DNA of 64,000 nt from an uncultured Candidatus Saccharibacteria bacterium (GCA_964474435.1 CAYYSI010000001.1:62647-126646), one strand, 5' to 3'. Counted from the stretch's first letter, positions 4,582 through 62,886 are shown. A program made the numbers and translations. The notes: generated by a model not told the origin, from the sequence alone.

Positions 4582-5715
4582 ATGGCTAAATACAAGTCAG
4601 GTATCTATAAGCAAAAGGAAGGTTATAAAAGCTTTTATCCATCCCAGGTAAATGGGGTATTTGAATGGACAGATAAGCGTATTGACGTGCTTCTTGCTGA
4701 TGCAATGCGATATCTTGGCGAGCTTAACGCATTTTCAAAATTGGTCCCTGATGTGGACTTTTTCATACAGATGCATATTGCAAAGGAAGCTACGACTTCG
4801 AGCAAGATAGAGGGCACGCAAACAAAACTTGATGAGGCACTTTTACCAGAGCTCGAAATTGACCCAGAAAAAAGAAATGACTGGGAAGAAGTTCAAAATT
4901 ATGTAAAAGCAATCAATTACTCCATTGCAGAGCTCAAAAAGCTTCCGCTCTCGATGCGGCTTGTAAAAGATACGCACAAAGTCCTCCTTTCAAGTGTGCG
5001 AGGATATACGAAACTACCCGGAGAGGTTCGCCGAAGTCAAAACTGGATTGGGGGCGCAACGCTCAGAGATGCAGTATTTATTCCTCCGCATCATGAAGAA
5101 GTGGCTGAGCTACTGAGTGATCTTGAGAAATTTTGGCACAATAAAGAAATTGATATTCCTGACTTGATCAAAATCGCGATTTCTCATTATCAATTTGAAA
5201 CGATCCACCCATTTCTCGATGGAAATGGCCGTATTGGTAGATTATTGATCACACTTCATCTCGTAAGTTTGGGAATTCTACAGAAACCTACACTCTATAT
5301 CTCTGACTTTTTTGAAAAACATCGCCCGCAATACTACGATGGTCTTTCGCGTGTCCGAGAAACAAATGATATCGAGCATTGGCTCCGTTTCTTTTTGACC
5401 GGAGTATTGGAAACTGCAAAAAATTCACGAGAAACATTGGAGAAAATCATCGACCTGCGCAAGAAATATGAAACTACTATCGAAAAAGGTATGGGTATCA
5501 AACGTCAAAAGCTGGGCAAAGAACTCTTGCGCCATCTTTTCTCCAAACCGATAGTGACGATCAGAGAAATAGAAGCAATGCTTTCTGTAACATTTCCCAC
5601 TGCCTCGGCAATCGCAAAAGACTTTGAAAGTTTGGGATTGTTTTCTGAAAAGACTGGGCTCAAAAAGGATCGAATCTTTTATTTAACAGACTATATCAAT
5701 CTCTTCAACAAATAA
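4582..5715 (+). CDS. Fic-family protein (AMPylator-type) with intact HPFx(D/E)GNGR motif and N-terminal inhibitory (S/T)xxxE(G/N) motif
   Basis: [12 protein letters not shown] is the canonical Fic active-site motif. TSSKIEGT fits the class-II inhibitory-helix motif. The gene is tightly linked to hsdM, with a 1-nt gap. Confidence 0.85.
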
Positions 5716-5716
5716 T

Positions 5717-7480
5717 ATGGAAAATTTAACTCAAAAAACTGCAATGGTCGCAATGATCTGGAACATAGCTGACATTCTCCGTGGAGGGTGGAAGCAGCAC
5801 GAGTACCAGGATGTCATACTTCCACTTGTTGTATTGAAGCGATTGGACGCTATTCTTGCCGATACAAAGGCAAATGTGTTGGAGAAAAATAATGAATATA
5901 AAGGAAAGATTAATGATCTTGATCCCATTCTCAAGAGAACAGCTAGGGCGCCTTTCTACAATACTTCGGAGTATGACTTCACAAACCTTTTGGGTGACCC
6001 GAAACATCTCGCAAAGAACTTCAAACGGTACATCAATGGATACAGCAAGAACATACAAGACATATTCGAAAAATTTGATTTCAATAAACAGCTCGAGCGT
6101 CTCGAAGGTGGTGATCTTTTGTTCTATGTTATCCAAGAGTTAAATAAAGTAGATCTGCACTCATCAAAGATAGACAATCATGAGATGGGACGCATATTCG
6201 AAGAACTTCTCCGTAAGTTTTCTGAAATGTCCAACGAAACTGCTGGAGAACACTACACGCCTCGCGATGTGATTAGTACGATGGTGGAGATCCTCCTTGC
6301 GCCTGATGCAAAGGATCTCAAGAAACCTCATGTTATCAAGAAAATATACGACCCTGCCTGTGGTACGGGTGGTATGCTTTCTGTTGCCAAAGATTACATT
6401 CTCGAACATATAAATCCAAAAGCAGATATCTTCCTCTATGGCCAAGAACTCAACTCGGTGACGTACGCGATGGCCAAGTCCGATATGTTGATCAAGGGGG
6501 ATGACCCTGACCTGATCCGCGGAGGAGAAAAAGACCATTCCAGGGCCAGTACGCTCGCTAATGATCAGTTTTTTGGGGAAGTATTCGACTACGGACTTTC
6601 AAACCCTCCATACGGTGTGGACTGGAAAAAAGACAAAGATGTGGTCGAACGTGAAGCGTCTCGCGGATACGCCGGGCGATTTGGTGCAGGTACCCCACGT
6701 ATCTCGGATGGACAACTGCTTTTCCTTCAGCATCTCGTCTCAAAAATGAAGCCAGAAGCCGATGGCGGCTCACGTCTTGCCATTGTCCACAACGGCTCAC
6801 CATTATTTACCGGCGATGCCGGGAGTGGTGAGAGTGAAATCCGTCGCTGGATCCTCGAGAAAGATCTGCTGGAGACGATTGTGGCATTACCTGACCAGCT
6901 CTTCTACAACACAGGGATCAACACCTATTTGTGGTACATCACCAACCGAAAGTCCAAAGAACGCAAAGGCAAGGTACAACTGATCGACGCGCGTGGATTC
7001 TTCAAGAAAACTCGCAAGAGTTTGGGTAGTAAACGTCAAGAAATCGACCCAGACTCAAAGAAAAAGATACGTGATCTCTATACCAACTTCGAAGAAAATG
7101 AACATTCAAAAATCTTTAAGACGACTGACTTTGCATACCGCCAGATTCAAGTCGAGCGTCCACTGATGGTAGATGGCAAAGTCTCAAAAAATAAAAAAGG
7201 AGAAATCGAGATAGATAAATCTCTTCGCGACTATGAAAACGTGCCATGGGGAACTGATGTCAATGAATACTTTGAGAAAGAAGTAAAACCCTATGTGCCT
7301 GATGCATGGATCAATACGTCAGTTGTCGATCACAAGGATGGTAAGGTAGGAGTGGTAGGATATGAAATTCCTTTTACTCGGTACTTCTACAAATACGAAG
7401 CACCGCGAAGTCTGGAGGCTATTGAGGGTAATATTGAAAAGGTTGAAAATGAATTATTGGAGCTTTTGAAGCAGTTGTAA
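5717..7480 (+). CDS. hsdM: Type I restriction-modification system, N6-adenine DNA methyltransferase subunit
   Basis: It carries the SAM motif DPACGTGGML and the catalytic LSNPPYG (NPPY). The 587-aa size is typical of HsdM. Confidence 0.9.
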   Translation: MENLTQKTAMVAMIWNIADILRGGWKQHEYQDVILPLVVLKRLDAILADTKANVLEKNNEYKGKINDLDPILKRTARAPFYNTSEYDFTNLLGDPKHLAKNFKRYINGYSKNIQDIFEKFDFNKQLERLEGGDLLFYVIQELNKVDLHSSKIDNHEMGRIFEELLRKFSEMSNETAGEHYTPRDVISTMVEILLAPDAKDLKKPHVIKKIYDPACGTGGMLSVAKDYILEHINPKADIFLYGQELNSVTYAMAKSDMLIKGDDPDLIRGGEKDHSRASTLANDQFFGEVFDYGLSNPPYGVDWKKDKDVVEREASRGYAGRFGAGTPRISDGQLLFLQHLVSKMKPEADGGSRLAIVHNGSPLFTGDAGSGESEIRRWILEKDLLETIVALPDQLFYNTGINTYLWYITNRKSKERKGKVQLIDARGFFKKTRKSLGSKRQEIDPDSKKKIRDLYTNFEENEHSKIFKTTDFAYRQIQVERPLMVDGKVSKNKKGEIEIDKSLRDYENVPWGTDVNEYFEKEVKPYVPDAWINTSVVDHKDGKVGVVGYEIPFTRYFYKYEAPRSLEAIEGNIEKVENELLELLKQL

Positions 7481-17631: not shown

Positions 17632-17663
17632 ATAAAAACCTCTCCATGTTGGAGAGGTTTTTA
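17632..17663 (+). terminator. rho-independent terminator CCTCTCCA-tgt-TGGAGAGG followed by T5
   Basis: An 8-bp stem is followed by TTTTTAT, directly after the SWIB gene. Confidence 0.75.
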
Positions 17664-17683
17664 TATTGGCATATACTTCGTAC

Positions 17684-20166: not shown

Positions 20167-20283
20167 TTCGTCTCAACGGATTATTCCTCGAAAACCGCGC
20201 GTAATTTTCTGCTGAAAATTCGCTATGCTCGGGCCAGTCGCCCTTGCGCAATGCTTTTCTCGAAACAATCCGTTTCGACTCAC
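20167..20283. repeat. structured intergenic repeat element, copy A (between rpsB and tsf)
   Basis: Imperfect ~25-bp outer inverted repeats (20167-20194 / 20256-20283) enclose a conserved core: hairpin AATTTTC-tgctg-AAAATTC plus hairpin GGGC-cagtc-GCCC. It is homologous to the copies at 51562-51678 and 62765-62873. Confidence 0.55.
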
Positions 20284-32062: not shown

Positions 32063-32265
32063 TCGTCAGTAGAAGATAGTTTCTTTCCGCAAACTCGGTG
32101 CTGCGCCCTCAAACAGTGCTACAAGAAACCATCTTCTACTGCCTCGCTCAGTGCTAGTATACGGAGCTCGCTGGAGATTGCACAGCGTGCTATAATGGTA
32201 CTGCAAAATATGATACATACCCCTATACGCGCAAGCGGAGGGGATTTGCCGCTACATACAAACAT

Positions 32266-34989
32266 ATGAAAAAGACCACAGAAAACAACAGAACAACAGA
32301 GCAACCAGGCACATCGATCGTTGTGAAGGGTGCACGCACGCACAATCTCAAAAACGTGTCAGTTGAAATGCCGCGCAATGCAATGATTGCGATCACGGGC
32401 CTTTCGGGGTCGGGCAAAAGCTCGCTTGCATTTGATACGATCTTTGCCGAAGGGCAGCGTCGATATGTCGAGAGTCTGTCGTCATATGCGCGACAGTTCT
32501 TGAACCAAATGCCAAAGCCTGATGTAGACGAGATCACCGGACTTTCGCCAGCGATCTCTATCGATCAGAAATCTCGCTCCAACAACCCACGCTCAACCGT
32601 TGCAACGATCACCGAGATCTACGACTACCTCCGCGTCCTCTATGCCCGCATCGGCAAGGCGTACTGTCCTGTGTGCGGCACACTTATCACCAAACTCTCA
32701 CCCGAAGAAATCAATGCATTCATCCTCGCCAAGATTAAAGAAGTAGGGAAGACCAATACCAAGAAGGTAATGGATGTCGGATTTAATGATACGCGTATTC
32801 AGATATTTGCGCCTATTGTTCGCGGTCGCAAAGGTGAGTACTACCAGCTGCTCTACGATCTCTTGGGTAAAGGATTCTCGACTATCCGTGTCGATGGTCA
32901 GATCAAACAACTGCGCGAGCGTATCGAACTCAAGAAAAATGACAAACACACGATTGAAGTATTGGTTGACGAGCTTGCCGTACATGAATTCAAGGATAAC
33001 CCACGTGACGCAGAGCTCCGACTCTTTGAAGCGGTAGAACGCGCGTTACTTGAGGCAGATGGGTTGGTGCAAGTTGTCATTGGCAACTCAGCAGATTTTG
33101 AAATGCAGACTGAGCCGATCCAAGAATTCCTCTTGTCAGCAAAGTTTTCATGTCCGAATGATGGATATAGTTTCCCCGAAATTGAGCCGCGACTCTTTTC
33201 ATTCAACTCGCCATATGGGGCATGTCCTGAGTGTAATGGTATCGGTACCAAGTTTTTTGGCGGCACGGAGCCGTGTCCTGTGTGTGAAGGCAAGCGTTTG
33301 CGGCCTGAAGCTTTGAATGTGTTCTTAGAAGCGGCAGTCTCCGGAAAGCAATTTCCTCGGTCCTCGGGTCGCAGTACTGCGTCTGCTCAACCAGACACTC
33401 AGAAATCACTTTCCGGATCCGCCGCTAAAATTAATATTGTGGATTTAACTTCTTTCTCTGTCGAAGAAGCATTTGATTTCTTTGGAGGACTCAAACTCTC
33501 TGCCAAGGATCGCGAGATCGGCAAGGCCATCATGAAAGAAATCGAAGATCGCCTCACCTTCCTTTTAAATGTTGGTTTGGAATACCTCGCCCTTTCGCGT
33601 ACTGCCAATACCCTCTCTGGAGGTGAAGCGCAACGCATCCGCCTAGCTTCCCAACTTGGGTCACGTCTTGTGGGCGCACTCTATGTGCTCGACGAGCCAA
33701 CGATTGGTCTGCACCAGCGCGACAACGAACGCTTGATCAAAACTCTGGAGGACTTGCGTGATCTCGGCAACACGATCATTGTCGTTGAGCATGACGAAGA
33801 CACGATCCTCGCATCCAACTATATGGTTGAGATCGGTCCGGGTGCCGGTATTCATGGAGGGAACGTCGTCGTCGCAGACAACCTTGCGAAGCTTTTGAGT
33901 GCAAAGAAAAATGATAGTGGAAGTCGCACGCTCGCATATCTGCGCAAAGAAGAAGCAATCGAAGTCCCCGAAAAGCGACGCGATACAGACAAAGGCATGC
34001 TCAAAATCGTCGGTGCAAATCTCCACAACCTCCATAACCAAAACATCGATGTACCACTCGGCAAAATGGTTGCGATCACTGGAGTTTCAGGTTCTGGAAA
34101 GAGTACGTTCCTCTACGACGTCTTGTACAAAAACTTGCAGGCAAAATTTGAGCGCAAATCCCGCAGTGCACAAATCTACAACTGCGCATCATTTACGGGT
34201 AGCGAATACCTCGCGCGCGTCATCATGATCGACCAGTCACCAATCGGTCGTACACCACGATCAAACATCGCGACATACACTGGGGCATTCACCCACATCC
34301 GAGAAATATTTGCTGCAACAGAGGAAGCACGCCTGCGTGGCTGGAAGCTCAATCGATTTTCATTCAATGTCAAAGGTGGCCGTTGCGAAGCCTGCGAAGG
34401 AAATGGTGAGATCGCAGTTGAAATGCACTTCTTGCCGACGGTGTATGTGACGTGTGATGTGTGTAATGGAAAAAGATTTGACAAGGAAACACTCACGGTG
34501 AAATACAAGCGCAAGAGTATTTATGATGTGCTCCAGCTCTCAGTTGAGGAAGCACTTGAATTCTTCCAGGATATCCCGGCGATCAGTGATCGACTCAAAA
34601 CATTGAACGACGTGGGGCTGGGGTATGTGAAGCTCGGACAAAGTGCAACCACACTTTCTGGTGGGGAAGCACAACGTGTAAAGATCGCATCAGAGCTCTA
34701 TCGTCCATATCTTGAAAAGACCATCTACCTGCTCGATGAACCCACTGTCGGACTCCACTATGACGATGTCAAAAATCTCATCGGTGTATTAAATAGACTT
34801 GTTGCAAAAGGAAATACCGTCGTCGTTATCGAACACAACCTCGACCTGATCAAATGTGCCGACTACCTTATCGACTTTGGTCCCGAAGGCGGTGTTGCCG
34901 GCGGCAAGATCATTGCAAAAGGAACCCCCGAGGACGTGGCGAACAATAAACATAGCTTCACGGGTCAATACCTCAAGAAAATTTTGTAA
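32266..34989 (+). CDS. uvrA: excinuclease ABC subunit A
   Basis: It has two ABC ATPase modules (GLSGSGKSSLAFDTIFAEGQRRYVESLS..., GVSGSGKSTF...), ABC signatures LSGGEAQR twice, and zinc fingers CPVC...CPEC and CEAC...CDVC. Confidence 0.95.
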   Translation: MKKTTENNRTTEQPGTSIVVKGARTHNLKNVSVEMPRNAMIAITGLSGSGKSSLAFDTIFAEGQRRYVESLSSYARQFLNQMPKPDVDEITGLSPAISIDQKSRSNNPRSTVATITEIYDYLRVLYARIGKAYCPVCGTLITKLSPEEINAFILAKIKEVGKTNTKKVMDVGFNDTRIQIFAPIVRGRKGEYYQLLYDLLGKGFSTIRVDGQIKQLRERIELKKNDKHTIEVLVDELAVHEFKDNPRDAELRLFEAVERALLEADGLVQVVIGNSADFEMQTEPIQEFLLSAKFSCPNDGYSFPEIEPRLFSFNSPYGACPECNGIGTKFFGGTEPCPVCEGKRLRPEALNVFLEAAVSGKQFPRSSGRSTASAQPDTQKSLSGSAAKINIVDLTSFSVEEAFDFFGGLKLSAKDREIGKAIMKEIEDRLTFLLNVGLEYLALSRTANTLSGGEAQRIRLASQLGSRLVGALYVLDEPTIGLHQRDNERLIKTLEDLRDLGNTIIVVEHDEDTILASNYMVEIGPGAGIHGGNVVVADNLAKLLSAKKNDSGSRTLAYLRKEEAIEVPEKRRDTDKGMLKIVGANLHNLHNQNIDVPLGKMVAITGVSGSGKSTFLYDVLYKNLQAKFERKSRSAQIYNCASFTGSEYLARVIMIDQSPIGRTPRSNIATYTGAFTHIREIFAATEEARLRGWKLNRFSFNVKGGRCEACEGNGEIAVEMHFLPTVYVTCDVCNGKRFDKETLTVKYKRKSIYDVLQLSVEEALEFFQDIPAISDRLKTLNDVGLGYVKLGQSATTLSGGEAQRVKIASELYRPYLEKTIYLLDEPTVGLHYDDVKNLIGVLNRLVAKGNTVVVIEHNLDLIKCADYLIDFGPEGGVAGGKIIAKGTPEDVANNKHSFTGQYLKKIL

Positions 34990-35040
34990 TAAAAAAGATC
35001 ACATGTTACATGTGATCTTTTGCAATTTTTCAGGAATCAA

Positions 35041-39266: not shown

Positions 39267-40220
39267 ATGCAAAAAATCGGAGTACTCCGCGGGGGTCCTG
39301 GAGACGAATATCATTTGTCGCTTGAAAGTGGCGCGCGCATTTCTGCCGCACTTCGTGCCGAAGGCTATGACGTACTCGACATGCTCGTCGATCGCGAGGG
39401 CATTCTCCATATCAAAGGTATCCCGGCAGCTATCGAGGAGATCCCTCAACACGTCGACATGGTGTGGAATGCGCTGCATGGTGCCGGTGGCGAAGACGGC
39501 GTGATACAGCGCATGCTCGAAGAAATCGGTATACCATACAGTGGCTCTGGCATCGATGCCTCTGAAGCAACGATCAACAAACTCACTGCCAAAGAACGTG
39601 CAAAAGAATTGGGACTTAAAACTCCCGAGTCCATACTTGTCATGCCCGAAGGAGGCGAGTCCGTATCAGAGATCACCCAAAATATTTATAAGCGCATGTC
39701 ACCACCGTGGGTACTCAAGCCATTGACGGGTGGCGCATCAATCAATACCTACTTTGCATTCACGCCGCTCGAACTCGCGCACTTTGTCGAAGAAAGCGTT
39801 TCGAACGGACAGCCATTCATTGTCGAGCAATACATATACGGCAGGGAAGCATCAGTCGGTGTGATCGATAACTTTCGTGGACAGGACAAATATGTGCTGC
39901 CAGTGGTTGAGCTCAAGTCCACAAATCGCGGCGTACTCACACACGACGCCCGCAAAGGAGACGAGCATGCAGTTGTGGGTGGATCATTCCGAAGTGATGA
40001 ACGAGAAATGCTCTCCAAGCTCGGGCGAGATTTGCACGAACACCTCGGTGCGAATGATTATTCTCAAAGTGAGTTCATCGTCGATAAGTATGGCAAAATT
40101 TGGTATATCGAAACTGACACCTCGCCACACATGGGTGAGCACAATGCATTTGCAAAGGCACTCAAGCATGTTGGGTCGTCATTGGGAGAATTCGTAAAGT
40201 CAGTAATCGGCAGGAAATAA
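39267..40220 (+). CDS. ddl: D-alanine--D-alanine ligase (ATP-grasp)
   Basis: The N-terminus MQKIGVLRGGPGDEYHLSLESGARISAALRAEGYDV is Ddl-like. An ATP-grasp central domain and a C-terminal ...EFIVD...YIETDTSPHMGEHNAF are present. Confidence 0.7.
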   Translation: MQKIGVLRGGPGDEYHLSLESGARISAALRAEGYDVLDMLVDREGILHIKGIPAAIEEIPQHVDMVWNALHGAGGEDGVIQRMLEEIGIPYSGSGIDASEATINKLTAKERAKELGLKTPESILVMPEGGESVSEITQNIYKRMSPPWVLKPLTGGASINTYFAFTPLELAHFVEESVSNGQPFIVEQYIYGREASVGVIDNFRGQDKYVLPVVELKSTNRGVLTHDARKGDEHAVVGGSFRSDEREMLSKLGRDLHEHLGANDYSQSEFIVDKYGKIWYIETDTSPHMGEHNAFAKALKHVGSSLGEFVKSVIGRK

Positions 40221-40250
40221 AAAACCACTCAGATGAGTGGTTTTTTATTT
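40219..40250. terminator. bidirectional rho-independent terminator AACCACTC-agat-GAGTGGTT flanked by A5 / T6
   Basis: A perfect 8-bp stem with A-run and T-run flanks lies between convergent genes ending at 40220 (+) and 40258 (-). Confidence 0.8.
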
Positions 40251-50904: not shown

Positions 50905-51303
50905 ATGGCAAAAACGCAATTTACTGAAAAAAAGCAGCGACTCTCGTACAAGCGCCTCCTTGGTGCACTCATTGCCCTCGTGCTTGCGTTCCTCCTCCTC
51001 ACATCAGTAGTCTCGGTTGCGAGCAAATATTTCGCGATCAAGCGTCATATCAAGGAGCTCAACCAAGAACAAGCAACCCTTGCTGCCAAACATGAATCAT
51101 TGGAGAAAAAAAATGCATACCTCGCAACTCCCGCCGGCCAAGAACAGGCGCTCCGTGACAAATACAACGTCGTGAAGCCTGGTGAGGGTATGATCGTCAT
51201 TGTGCCGCCAGATGTCAGCAGGGAACCCGAGGACAAACCTTCGGCAGTATCGAGGTGGTGGAGTGCCATAATTGCAGGTTTGGGCATCGGCCGTGACAAG
51301 TGA
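50905..51303 (+). CDS. septum-formation initiator family protein (FtsB / DivIC-like)
   Basis: A single TM (LLGALIALVLAFLLLTSVV) is followed by a coiled coil (IKELNQEQATLAAKHESLEKKNAYL), typical of FtsB/DivIC. Confidence 0.55.
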   Translation: MAKTQFTEKKQRLSYKRLLGALIALVLAFLLLTSVVSVASKYFAIKRHIKELNQEQATLAAKHESLEKKNAYLATPAGQEQALRDKYNVVKPGEGMIVIVPPDVSREPEDKPSAVSRWWSAIIAGLGIGRDK

Positions 51304-51317
51304 TATACTGAGCCTAT

Positions 51318-51554
51318 ATGAAGGAAATCACGATCTACAGCACACCCGTATGTCATTATTGCAACCTTGCCAAGGAATTCTTCAAGGCCAATAATATTGC
51401 GTATACCGAATACAACGTTGCGGCTGATGCGGACAAGCGTGCAGAAATGATTGATCTGACCGGACAGCTCGGAGTGCCAGTCATCAGAGTAGGAGACGAC
51501 GTTATGGTAGGGTTCCAAGAGTCTCATATGAGGCAGGTCTTGGGCATGGCGTAG
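51318..51554 (+). CDS. glutaredoxin-like protein (NrdH/YruB-type, CxxC)
   Basis: MKEITIYSTPVCHYCNLAKEFF...VPVIRVGD... has a glutaredoxin fold with a CHYC active site. Confidence 0.75.
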   Translation: MKEITIYSTPVCHYCNLAKEFFKANNIAYTEYNVAADADKRAEMIDLTGQLGVPVIRVGDDVMVGFQESHMRQVLGMA

Positions 51555-51561
51555 TATTTTT

Positions 51562-51678
51562 CTCGCAGGCAAAAGTACATTTCTCGAAATACACGAAAAT
51601 ATTCTGCTGAATATTTTCTCCTTCCGGCGCCAGTCGCGCCTCCAGAGGCATTTCTCAAAAAATACTTTTGCCTGCTCG
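51562..51678. repeat. structured intergenic repeat element, copy C (between the glutaredoxin-like gene and tRNA-Arg)
   Basis: A 13-bp outer stem GCAGGCAAAAGTA / TACTTTTGCCTGC encloses hairpin GAAAATATTC-tgct-GAATATTTTC plus hairpin GGCGC-cagtc-GCGCC, the same architecture as copies A and B. Confidence 0.55.
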
Positions 51679-51686
51679 AAGTGTAT

Positions 51687-51758
51687 GCCCTCATAGTTTA
51701 ATGGATAGAACAGTCCCGTCCTAAGGGATTGATGTGCGTTCGATTCGTGCTGAGGGCA
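51687..51758 (+). tRNA. tRNA-Arg (anticodon CCU)
   Basis: GCCCTCATAGTTTAATGGATAGAACAGTCCCGTCCTAAGGGATTGATGTGCGTTCGATTCGTGCTGAGGGCA has a 7-bp acceptor stem, anticodon loop GTCCTAA, and T-loop TTCGATT. The isotype is less certain than the tRNA call itself. Confidence 0.7.
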
Positions 51759-51778
51759 CTTTTTGGTATACTTAGTGT

Positions 51779-52153: not shown

Positions 52154-52160
52154 CAAATAA

Positions 52161-52197
52161 CAAAAATACCACCTCGATATAAGGTGGTATTTTTGTA
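52161..52197. terminator. bidirectional rho-independent terminator ATACCACCT-cgatata-AGGTGGTAT
   Basis: A perfect 9-bp stem has A5 upstream and T4 downstream. It sits between tRNA-Phe (+) and the hsp20 stop (-). Confidence 0.8.
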
Positions 52198-60388: not shown

Positions 60389-60434
60389 ACAACGGTTAAA
60401 ACCCTATTCTTTATACAGAGAATAGGGTTTTTAT

Positions 60435-61797: not shown

Positions 61798-62739
61798 CTA
61801 TTTACCAGTTTTTAACCAAACGTACAAGTCCTCGATAGCTTTGACAGCATCACCAGCTGCGATGTTGTTTTGGTGGTAGAGACCATTGGTGCAATCACCA
61901 GCTGCCCAGATGCCGAGTTGTTTGGTGCGTTGGTTTATTGGGTCGACGAATATTTTGCCGTCTTGGGTGGGTGGCACGAGGTCTTTGACGAATGCAGTGG
62001 CAGGGATCTGGCCGATCTCGACAAAGAGTCCACTGATAGGGAGCTCTGTTGGTTCTGCAGCGTCTTTTTCGCGGTATACGACAGACGAGACAAATTTGTC
62101 ACCTTTGATTTCCATAAGCTCGATATTTTTCAAAAGGGTGACATTTGGAAGTTTGGAGACATTGTCGACTGTGATTTGGTCAGCACGATATGAGTCGCTG
62201 CGATGGAGGAGAGTGACGTGTGAGGCATACTGTGAGAGCTGCAAAACTGCCTCAAGCGCCGCGTTTCCGCCTCCTGCTACAGCAACGGGCATGCCGCTAA
62301 AGAGTGGGCCGTCACAGGTCGCACAGTACATGATGCCTTTGTGATCAAATTTGTCTGCGCCCAGGACTTCGAGTTTGCGGTGACTTGAGCCAGTAGCTAT
62401 GAGGACACTCTTTGAAGTGATCGTCTCTGTTTCGCCATCGATCGTTGTGACAAATGCATCAGTTACATCTTTGGTAATATTTGAAACTCGTTTGCCAAGC
62501 TTGAGTGTGAGTGTGTGTTCAGGCTTTGCGTATTCTTCGATATGAGTTTTCAGGTTCTTTGCGAGGTCAGAGCCGCTGATTGATGGAGTACCGATCCAGT
62601 TGAAAATAGTGTCAGAGACTGATGACTGACCACCAACTTCTTCTGCGATGAGAAGGGTAGTGATGCGCTTGCGTGCGGCATAGACTGCCGCCGCACATGC
62701 TGCTGGGCCTCCACCGATGATGACGAGTTCGTATTGCAT
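61798..62739 (-). CDS. trxB: thioredoxin-disulfide reductase
   Basis: FAD motif IIGGGPAACAAAVYAAR, redox-active CATCDG and the NADPH motif GGGNAALEAV are present. Confidence 0.9.
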   Translation of the reverse strand: MQYELVIIGGGPAACAAAVYAARKRITTLLIAEEVGGQSSVSDTIFNWIGTPSISGSDLAKNLKTHIEEYAKPEHTLTLKLGKRVSNITKDVTDAFVTTIDGETETITSKSVLIATGSSHRKLEVLGADKFDHKGIMYCATCDGPLFSGMPVAVAGGGNAALEAVLQLSQYASHVTLLHRSDSYRADQITVDNVSKLPNVTLLKNIELMEIKGDKFVSSVVYREKDAAEPTELPISGLFVEIGQIPATAFVKDLVPPTQDGKIFVDPINQRTKQLGIWAAGDCTNGLYHQNNIAAGDAVKAIEDLYVWLKTGK

Positions 62740-62764
62740 AGGACTGCATTATACAGGAGCCTCA

Positions 62765-62873
62765 CAAAAAAGAAAAAGAGGTATTTGCCGTCGCGTAATT
62801 TCCTGCTGGAAATTCGCTGATACTCGGACCAGGTCGTCCTGCGTAACACGGCAAATACCTCTTTTTCTTTTTG
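62765..62873. repeat. structured intergenic repeat element, copy B (between ftsZ and trxB); best-preserved copy
   Basis: An outer inverted repeat of ~24 bp (AAAGAAAAAGAGGTATTTGCCG / CGGCAAATACCTCTTTTTCTTT) encloses hairpin GCGTAATTTCC-tgct-GGAAATTCGC plus hairpin GGAC-caggtc-GTCC. Confidence 0.6.
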
Positions 62874-62886
62874 TTTGCTTCAGAGA

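Follow-up and report, generated by a model that had tools for sequence, protein, structure and literature searches.

The window analysed here, a stretch of 64 kb (64,000 nucleotides) from an uncultured bacterium labelled Candidatus Saccharibacteria, carries three elements that fold alike in short gaps between genes, and the question they raise is what kind of sequence they are. The Patescibacteria (CPR), which account for much of bacterial diversity, have tiny genomes with few known regulators; to our knowledge, almost nothing is known of their non-coding sequence. Judged by FtsZ, the relatives of the window are Candidatus Paceibacterota and Nomurabacteria-like Patescibacteria, and several of the 'Saccharibacteria' labels on TPA MAGs may be imprecise. 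The results of the current study indicate that the three window copies are members of a new, Patescibacteria-wide family of non-coding hairpin elements.

The hairpin-1 pattern, AATWTYCTGCTGRAWATT, matches the window six times, at three sites on both strands, against 0.09 matches expected, and this count was reached in none of 100 shuffles. Every copy folds into an outer stem enclosing two inner hairpins, with z-scores against shuffled controls of -2.5, -6.5 and -8.8 on the plus strand and of -6.3, -8.1 and -9.3 on the minus strand. A scan of the window with a covariance model of the family found exactly three copies (60.8-79.1 bits), all in a single common orientation on the minus strand, the next match scoring 13 bits. 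An earlier note on this DNA had described three copies with a common core at these sites, which sequence, folding and covariance model all bear out, and had named the flanking genes correctly as rpsB/tsf, glutaredoxin/tRNA-Arg and ftsZ/trxB, the tRNA being tRNA-Arg(CCT). It had also placed the elements correctly, while underestimating their extent, as they are somewhat longer than the bounds it gave. The whole elements, about 110-120 nt in the window, and their inner hairpins, P2 and P3, are as follows.

20170-20279, minus strand: copy 1, whole hairpin, in the rpsB-tsf spacer, both genes being on the minus strand; model match 20183-20267, 70.0 bits
20199-20223, minus strand: copy 1, hairpin P2, GCG-AAUUUUC-AGCA-GAAAAUU-A-CGC
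20227-20247, minus strand: copy 1, hairpin P3, GGGC/GCCC with loop GACUG
51560-51680, minus strand: copy 2, whole hairpin, between glutaredoxin (51318-51554, plus) and tRNA-Arg (51687-51759, plus); model match 51578-51661, 60.8 bits
51595-51618, minus strand: copy 2, hairpin P2, 10 bp with loop AGCA
51620-51648, minus strand: copy 2, hairpin P3, GGCGC/GCGCC with loop GACUG, plus outer P3a pairs
62765-62875, minus strand: copy 3, whole hairpin, between the ftsZ stop (62887) and the trxB promoter and start (62739); model match 62777-62861, 79.1 bits
62793-62817, minus strand: copy 3, hairpin P2, GCG-AAUUUCC-AGCA-GGAAAUU-A(bulge)-CGC
62821-62845, minus strand: copy 3, hairpin P3, UAC-GCA-GGAC-GACCUG-GUCC-GA-GUA, that is, P3a, a GNA/GA internal loop and P3b; P3a and P3b covary

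The outer stem of copy 3 pairs 62767-62791 with 62848-62872 (25 bp, 100% complementary) and that of copy 2 pairs 51560-51590 with 51650-51680 (31 nt, 77% complementary, including a perfect 13-bp part). The stem of copy 1 is interrupted (20170-20279), its arms carrying tandem G.A loops (CGAG/CGAG and GA/GA). Copy 2, which belongs to a subtype with no bulge in P2, is antisense to both of its plus-strand neighbours.

Species-representative genomes were scanned with a pattern spanning both inner hairpins, and 116 stretches matched, mainly in Patescibacteria MAGs (Nomura-, Paceibacterota, Uhr-, Taylor- and Nealsonbacteria, Minisyncoccia and others), with a minority of obvious chance matches in other phyla. 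The covariance model (R1), trained on 88 copies, detected 111 copies in the genome loci examined, at 37-97 bits, including variants missed by the pattern. The scan of relatives for the core motif, together with the covariance model, thus establishes with more than 110 copies the genuine conserved structured family that had been suspected from the window alone, and conservation of its core spans several CPR classes. The density of the element is low, about one per 20-60 kb, the window having three copies and some close relatives lacking it over 21 kb. A comparison with Rfam, likewise suggested earlier, returned nothing for the element at three sensitivities: the whole window at the gathering threshold of Rfam 15 gave five tRNAs only, copy 3 at E<=10 was matched by nothing but generic miRNA models of long hairpins, with scores far under the threshold, and in eight copy-bearing loci at E<=5 no family fell on the element. 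A search of the literature for a CPR repeat or RNA of this kind found no description. In viral contigs the full two-hairpin pattern had zero matches, and the hairpin-1 pattern alone had 117 chance matches. One true copy comes from a contig of 4.7 kb that is labelled 'uncultured Gammaproteobacteria' (L171, CAYHRN010000055.1) and is probably mis-binned CPR sequence.

Several loci carry more than one copy. Paired complete elements stand head to head (5' ends facing, ~50-100 nt) at L196:878-1112, L141:172-375, L215:5606-5863 and L243:3761-3976, the last pair consisting of two different subtypes, and six of the seven opposite-orientation pairs in the genome loci are divergent. Two near-identical copies, alike even in their arms, lie either side of a peptide-chain release-factor gene (L213:6218-6301 and 7292-7375), and two divergent copies lie either side of a DivIC-like gene (L198:4830-4914 and 5466-5549); in the window, a DivIC-like ORF (50905-51303) is two genes away from copy 2.

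The conserved part of the element is a self-folding, Y-shaped module of about 60 nt that stands atop a long locus-specific hairpin, the whole hairpins in the family measuring 87-195 nt (median 120). Read from base to tip on the minus strand, a short basal stem is followed by an internal loop rich in purines, frequently the tandem G.A motif CGAG/CGAG, and by a long copy-specific stem; above this come, often, a second GA/GA loop, then a 6-bp closing stem (P1a) and a three-way junction. P2 has the family consensus GCR-AAUUUUC-AGCA-GAAAAUU-A-YGC with a bulged A, and P3 consists of outer pairs (P3a), a GNA/GA loop, an inner stem (P3b) and a variable loop of 4-6 nt. The unpaired nucleotides, the bulged A and the AGYA tetraloop are conserved. 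Two tertiary readings of this layout were considered and rejected. A kissing loop between the CAG of the P2 loop and a CUG of the P3 loop is contradicted by P3 loops that vary (GACUG, GACG, GGCG, GGGUA, UCG) over a constant P2, and a k-turn in the P3 loop does not fit the order of the bulge and the G.A pairs.

Pairing covaries strongly, and on this point the earlier note is supported. On the model-based alignment, with which a MAFFT alignment agrees, 89.9% of cells are paired against 65.5% in the shuffled control and 37-55% in slid-register controls, changes on both sides occur in 830 cells against 250 in the control, and 29 of the 30 pairs show compensatory change. Cores of 58 nt are 96-100% identical across loci and genomes, yet the arms beneath them are at background identity (0.50 +/- 0.09). 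The P2 stem is AT-rich and mostly invariant, with GC-rich compensatory replacements in a few copies, which indicates that the hairpin itself is the kept feature, rather than a duplex operator. The half-sites of P2, AATTTTC/GAAAATT (for example at 20203-20220), are those of the Firmicutes CodY box; the spacer of that box is 1 nt as against 4 nt in P2, and the GC-rich compensatory variants argue that the likeness is a coincidence.

The common orientation of the three copies, also reported earlier, stands, whereas the plus strand that had been named as the relevant one does not: purine-rich loops, an excess of wobble pairs and folding energies all favour the minus strand. In 83 of 89 copies, whatever the direction of the neighbouring genes, this strand gives the more stable fold, the mean difference being 6.7 kcal/mol. 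On it, G.U pairs number 109 against 53 A.C pairs. Much of this energy asymmetry reflects a shared purine-rich loop composition, not independent events, and in the arms alone the wobble test is weak (90 vs 67), so that the strand call rests mainly on loop composition and core pairs. We therefore assign the sense strand, with moderate confidence, to the minus strand of the window. Cumulative GC skew climbs along the plus strand (total +0.65), which is probably the leading strand, and the sense strand of all three window copies is on the opposite, C-richer strand. Across the family the sense strand shows a weak bias to the C-rich strand (58 vs 31 copies, n=89). Replication direction was considered as the determinant of orientation and rejected, as this bias is weak and neighbouring copies are opposite in 7 of 12 pairs.

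The copies keep no fixed relation to the genes around them, which are assorted housekeeping genes, and the host hairpins stand at the ends of core genes such as ftsZ, rpsB-tsf, a release-factor gene and DivIC. Flanking genes are arranged around the element in every way (<< 27, >> 23, >< 11, <> 7), seven copies lying between genes that appear divergent by crude ORF calling. Copies sense and antisense to their neighbours are equally well kept, with core identities of 0.84 and 0.86 and 0.94 of pairs formed in both. Transcription signals were sought on either strand: there is no sigma-70-like promoter within 400-nt windows around the three copies, matches to a -10 or -35/-10 consensus are equally frequent upstream of the sense and antisense strands of 88 copies, a simple terminator scan found no terminator at copies 1-3, and the 88 copies have no U-tail specific to either strand, the T-content after the hairpin being low. 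Copies 1 and 2 have no U-tract. The family alignments contain no conserved flanking motif and the element contains no ORF. Among the top families of 133 neighbouring genes there is no transposase, reverse transcriptase, RAYT or other recurrent partner, and the copies show no association with tRNA genes.

Beside copy 3, the trxB start at 62739 has an extended -10 box, TGTATAAT (62748-62755, minus strand), kept as TGTATACT in relatives. Because this box lies only 8 nt before the ATG, the trxB mRNA is probably leaderless, and ftsZ and trxB probably form separate transcription units.

The arms are unique to each locus, and in about half of the copies they resemble bidirectional intrinsic terminators. 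They are A-rich on the 5' side and T-rich on the 3' side in 36 copies, against three with the reverse, a pattern which holds on both strands. The arms of copy 3 are of this terminator-like A-tract/T-tract kind, between the ftsZ stop and the extended -10 promoter of trxB, and those of copies 1 and 2 have no A/T tracts. Ordinary bidirectional intrinsic terminators, composed like the arms of copy 3 of an A-tract, a short GC-containing stem and a T-tract, are common in the window.

40215-40250, 17632-17664, 52160-52196, 790-831, 60398-60431, 340-369 and 34993-35021: ordinary bidirectional terminators

The earlier description of a covarying outer stem therefore holds for its complementarity and mostly fails as the compensatory evolution of one RNA helix, since the arms are locus-specific and terminator-like and plain terminators stand in relatives. 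That the copies are not decaying MITEs, as was also argued then, agrees with our tests. The copies have no terminal inverted repeats in common. Direct repeats across the base of the hairpin are about as long as in a shuffled-partner control (mean of the longest, 4.49 against 4.37), and those of at least 6 nt are found in 11% of cases against 13% in the control. Comparison of the arms with the adjacent flank, as inverted copies of it, and with other sequence, as guides to it, gave no matches beyond chance.

Orthologous spacers reveal presence, absence, exchange and inversion of the module at the same sites. In the rpsB-tsf spacer, the closest relative (Tsf 90% identical) and 11 others have 30-45 nt with no element and no hairpin, three relatives have the element in the orientation of the window, four have it in the opposite orientation, and in one a pair of copies, each of its own subtype, stands head to head. 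The arms have no significant similarity to the empty spacer of the closest relative, 110 of 500 shuffles scoring as well. The ftsZ-trxB spacer is occupied as follows.

Window and L322: element sense to ftsZ
L317: the 59-nt core of L322 as its exact reverse complement, on the same A-tract/T-tract arms
L318 and L319: same kind of arms, different purine-rich apex
L323, L325 and L326: plain canonical terminator
L324: a different long hairpin
L320 and L321: no hairpin

The sister loci L317 and L322 are 91% identical in ftsZ at the nucleotide level, and their cores, once one is reverse-complemented, agree at all 59 nt, so that the core has been cleanly flipped in situ. The window and L322 share an orientation, and their cores are distinguished by double changes in P3b and P2 that compensate each other. 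The arms of L317 are similar to the plain terminator found in L326, AAAAAACACCATATT-loop-AATATGGTGTTTTTT.

A second hairpin family was noticed, with a purine-rich apex (the B apex) that reads GAUUUCUGAGUGUCUGG...CCGAGGACCGAGGAAAU on the minus strand.

33335-33422 of the window, minus-strand apex: B-apex hairpin, in frame inside uvrA (ORF 32266-34989, about aa 357-385)
L318:11171-11290: B-apex hairpin, the ftsZ-trxB hairpin of a close relative

The site in uvrA is where the UvrA of the window has about 36 residues that are absent from solved UvrA structures, and from its sequence this hairpin looks like an insertion into the gene of the kind known as Rickettsia palindromic elements. Just upstream of uvrA, at 32067-32141, is another long hairpin with 19-nt arms (95% complementary) and a 37-nt apex, which is purine-rich on the minus strand and loosely like the B apex; the covariance model of the Y module gives it only 9 bits.

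We tentatively propose, as the best-supported reading but one to which we give somewhat less than an even chance, that the Y module is a self-folding module, mobile and invertible at the DNA level, which resides in the tips of terminator-type hairpins. The module would be gained, lost and exchanged for other types of apex, and inverted-repeat arms on either side would allow it to be flipped in place. Its own helices would keep the host hairpin closed in either orientation, and this would account for the orientation-blind Watson-Crick compensatory pairing. The invariant unpaired nucleotides and P2 would probably form the surface that is read in the folded single-stranded form; they imply recognition by a putative trans-acting factor, which may propagate a selfish module or use the module for the host. 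Many of the host hairpins would be bidirectional stems of the intrinsic-terminator type downstream of a gene. We infer mobility at the DNA level, residence in terminator tips as a general rule and the recognition factor; the B-apex hairpin in frame inside uvrA does indicate that hairpin elements of such a kind insert. Set against this proposal, the analysis identified neither a transposase nor a recombinase or other partner, and it found no insertion event that could be resolved to the nucleotide. Insertion into terminator loops would not be the whole story either, since the empty rpsB-tsf sites are free of hairpins and the arms of copies 1 and 2 lack A/T tracts, and a terminator is not expected at the seven copies between apparently divergent genes (again by crude ORF calling). 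Purine-rich tandem G.A loops and a wobble excess on one strand, as in a functional RNA of fixed polarity, also weaken it, and so does the conservation of a 58-nt core at class level, which selfish repeats such as REPs do not usually show and which fits a host function better.

We consider it possible, if somewhat doubtful, that the element encodes a structured non-coding RNA. The minus-strand transcript would then fold as a rod carrying tandem G.A loops and a conserved three-way junction, to which a conserved protein or RNA would bind, and it may work in trans or serve as a module for the 3' end or for processing. The very strong covariation in all helices, the conserved tetraloop, bulged A and other unpaired nucleotides, the purine-rich internal loops typical of RNA motifs, the better folding and G.U excess of the sense strand, the conservation across CPR classes and a core unchanged over 59 nt in sister genomes whose ftsZ differs by 9% of nucleotides would all be expected of such an RNA. 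However, neither strand has a promoter or a terminator tail, the flanks are not conserved, orientation is random with respect to the genes that would supply transcription, antisense copies are conserved as well as sense copies, both core orientations are tolerated at one site in sister genomes, copies are missing from the closest relatives, and the energy asymmetry is largely that of shared loop composition. The earlier note had favoured a small ncRNA family or a REP-like mRNA element; a conventional small-RNA gene and an mRNA element tied to one orientation are argued against by an orientation and a conservation independent of the host gene, by the lack of a promoter and by the in situ flip of the core. 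Orientation independence would be readily understood if the element were a DNA-structure site of the host, a branched cruciform or folded single strand bound at gene ends by a housekeeping DNA protein, for which topoisomerase or gyrase, a replication-restart protein or a nucleoid protein would be candidates; enterobacterial REP/BIME sequences bind gyrase, IHF and Pol I. The location at the ends of housekeeping genes, the AT-rich perfect palindrome of P2, the deep conservation of the core and the weak sense bias to the C-rich strand are in agreement with such a site. We nevertheless consider it quite unlikely, given the low and variable density of the element, the frequently opposite orientation of neighbouring copies and the lack of a known binding protein, and because an excess of wobble pairs on one strand is not expected of a cruciform that uses both.

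Two further explanations fare worse. A classical MITE, a deleted insertion sequence mobilised by a transposase through its terminal inverted repeats, would be multi-copy, intergenic, hairpin-forming and polymorphic in presence, as the element is; but its termini are not conserved, the arms being at background identity, target-site duplications are no more frequent than chance, the conserved part is central and not terminal, and the neighbouring genes include no transposase, so that this reading is largely refuted and very improbable. Ordinary intrinsic terminators, similar by chance or composition, would explain the terminator-like arms of about half of the copies and the position of copy 3 directly after ftsZ and before the trxB promoter. 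They leave unexplained a 58-nt core in more than 110 copies from many genomes at 37-97 bits, where chance would give about 0.09 per window, and copies 1 and 2 without a U-tract; refuted by the family-wide conservation, this explanation is scarcely credible. We also considered a bolder extension of the mobile-module proposal, which we hold to be unlikely, in which the Y module homes into the apical loops of terminator hairpins and a recombinase-independent flip-flop toggles the binding of a CPR protein and the fate of the transcript. Each flip would swap the purine-loop apex for its complement in the 3' hairpin of the transcript, and the toggled binding of a conserved CPR protein would alter 3'-end stability, processing or read-through for essential genes, ftsZ and rpsB-tsf among them. 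If true, phase variation at hairpin tips would operate throughout a phylum whose regulatory repertoires are minimal.

What is new is a 60-nt module, found across several CPR classes, whose fold is kept by compensatory changes, which stands on hairpins at the ends of core genes and which flips between sister genomes. With its conserved tip and free arms, it would represent a new type among small genomic elements. The covariance model is ready for use in the annotation of CPR genomes, the element is a natural marker of strain-level genome dynamics, and the invariant P2 hairpin and the G.A loops offer a handle for finding the protein that recognises it. If the flip alters the fate of a transcript, a new regulatory principle would be involved; if the module is purely selfish, mobile DNA would survive in extremely compact genomes by hiding in terminator loops.

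Among known systems, the Y-module family works most like REP/BIME/REPIN sequences and Rickettsia palindromic elements, as small palindromes at gene ends with neither terminal inverted repeats nor target-site duplications. Rickettsia palindromic elements (RPEs), reportedly described by Ogata et al. in 2000, are about 100-150 bp long, occur in the reduced genomes of host-dependent bacteria, have no known mechanism of mobility and are not known to flip. Their hallmark, in-frame insertion into genes, is shared here by the B-apex hairpin in uvrA and by no verified Y-module copy, and their copies share the whole sequence, whereas Y-module copies share the apex only. The T/Y-shaped hairpin of the AAV inverted terminal repeat (ITR) also has a three-way junction, with an asymmetric tip that occurs in two orientations (flip/flop), and such repeats are the ends of linear single-stranded DNA genomes processed by Rep. 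Invertons, segments between inverted repeats that occur in both orientations, carry promoters and need invertases. The likeness to these lies in the 59-nt cores of L317 and L322, which are exact reverse complements at the same site on the same kind of arms, and in the two orientations of the element at the rpsB-tsf spacer; in contrast to both, the Y-module element is chromosomal and internal, with no promoter in or near the window copies and no recombinase found. With intrinsic terminators it shares arms with a 5' A-tract and a 3' T-tract directly after stop codons, plain terminators standing at the orthologous site, but a terminator has a small loop where the element has a conserved, branched module of 60 nt, and copies 1 and 2 are without a U-tract. 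Integron attC sites are recognised by structure, one strand folding into an imperfect hairpin with extrahelical bases. They have conserved R and L boxes at the base, a variable tip and a place in cassette arrays beside the integrase gene intI, whereas the Y-module element has a conserved tip and a variable base and is dispersed among housekeeping genes with no integrase nearby.

ERIC/IRU and other bacterial MITEs are imperfect palindromes of about 120 bp that occur in transcribed intergenic regions in both orientations and form RNA hairpins affecting the fate of mRNA (PMC3184786, PMC10969869). Conserved terminal inverted repeats and target duplications characterise MITEs; the Y-module family was tested for both and has neither. 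REP/BIME/REPIN sequences are short, non-coding, extragenic palindromes at gene ends, in either orientation and with neither terminal inverted repeats nor target-site duplications, which can act as transcript hairpins and probably move in folded, single-stranded form (PMC2817692, PMC3116915, PMC3733652). REPs differ in being 20-40 nt long with a GTAG/CGTC head and conserved arms, usually in more than 100 copies per genome, species-specific and associated with RAYT transposases, while the Y-module family has a branched conserved apex of 60 nt, locus-unique arms, a low density and a core shared across CPR classes. No conserved head tetranucleotide of the GTAG/CGTC type is present in the Y-module alignments, in which the centre is conserved and the ends vary. 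The architecture of the element, a conserved branched tip on free arms, is therefore the inverse of that of REPINs and attC sites.
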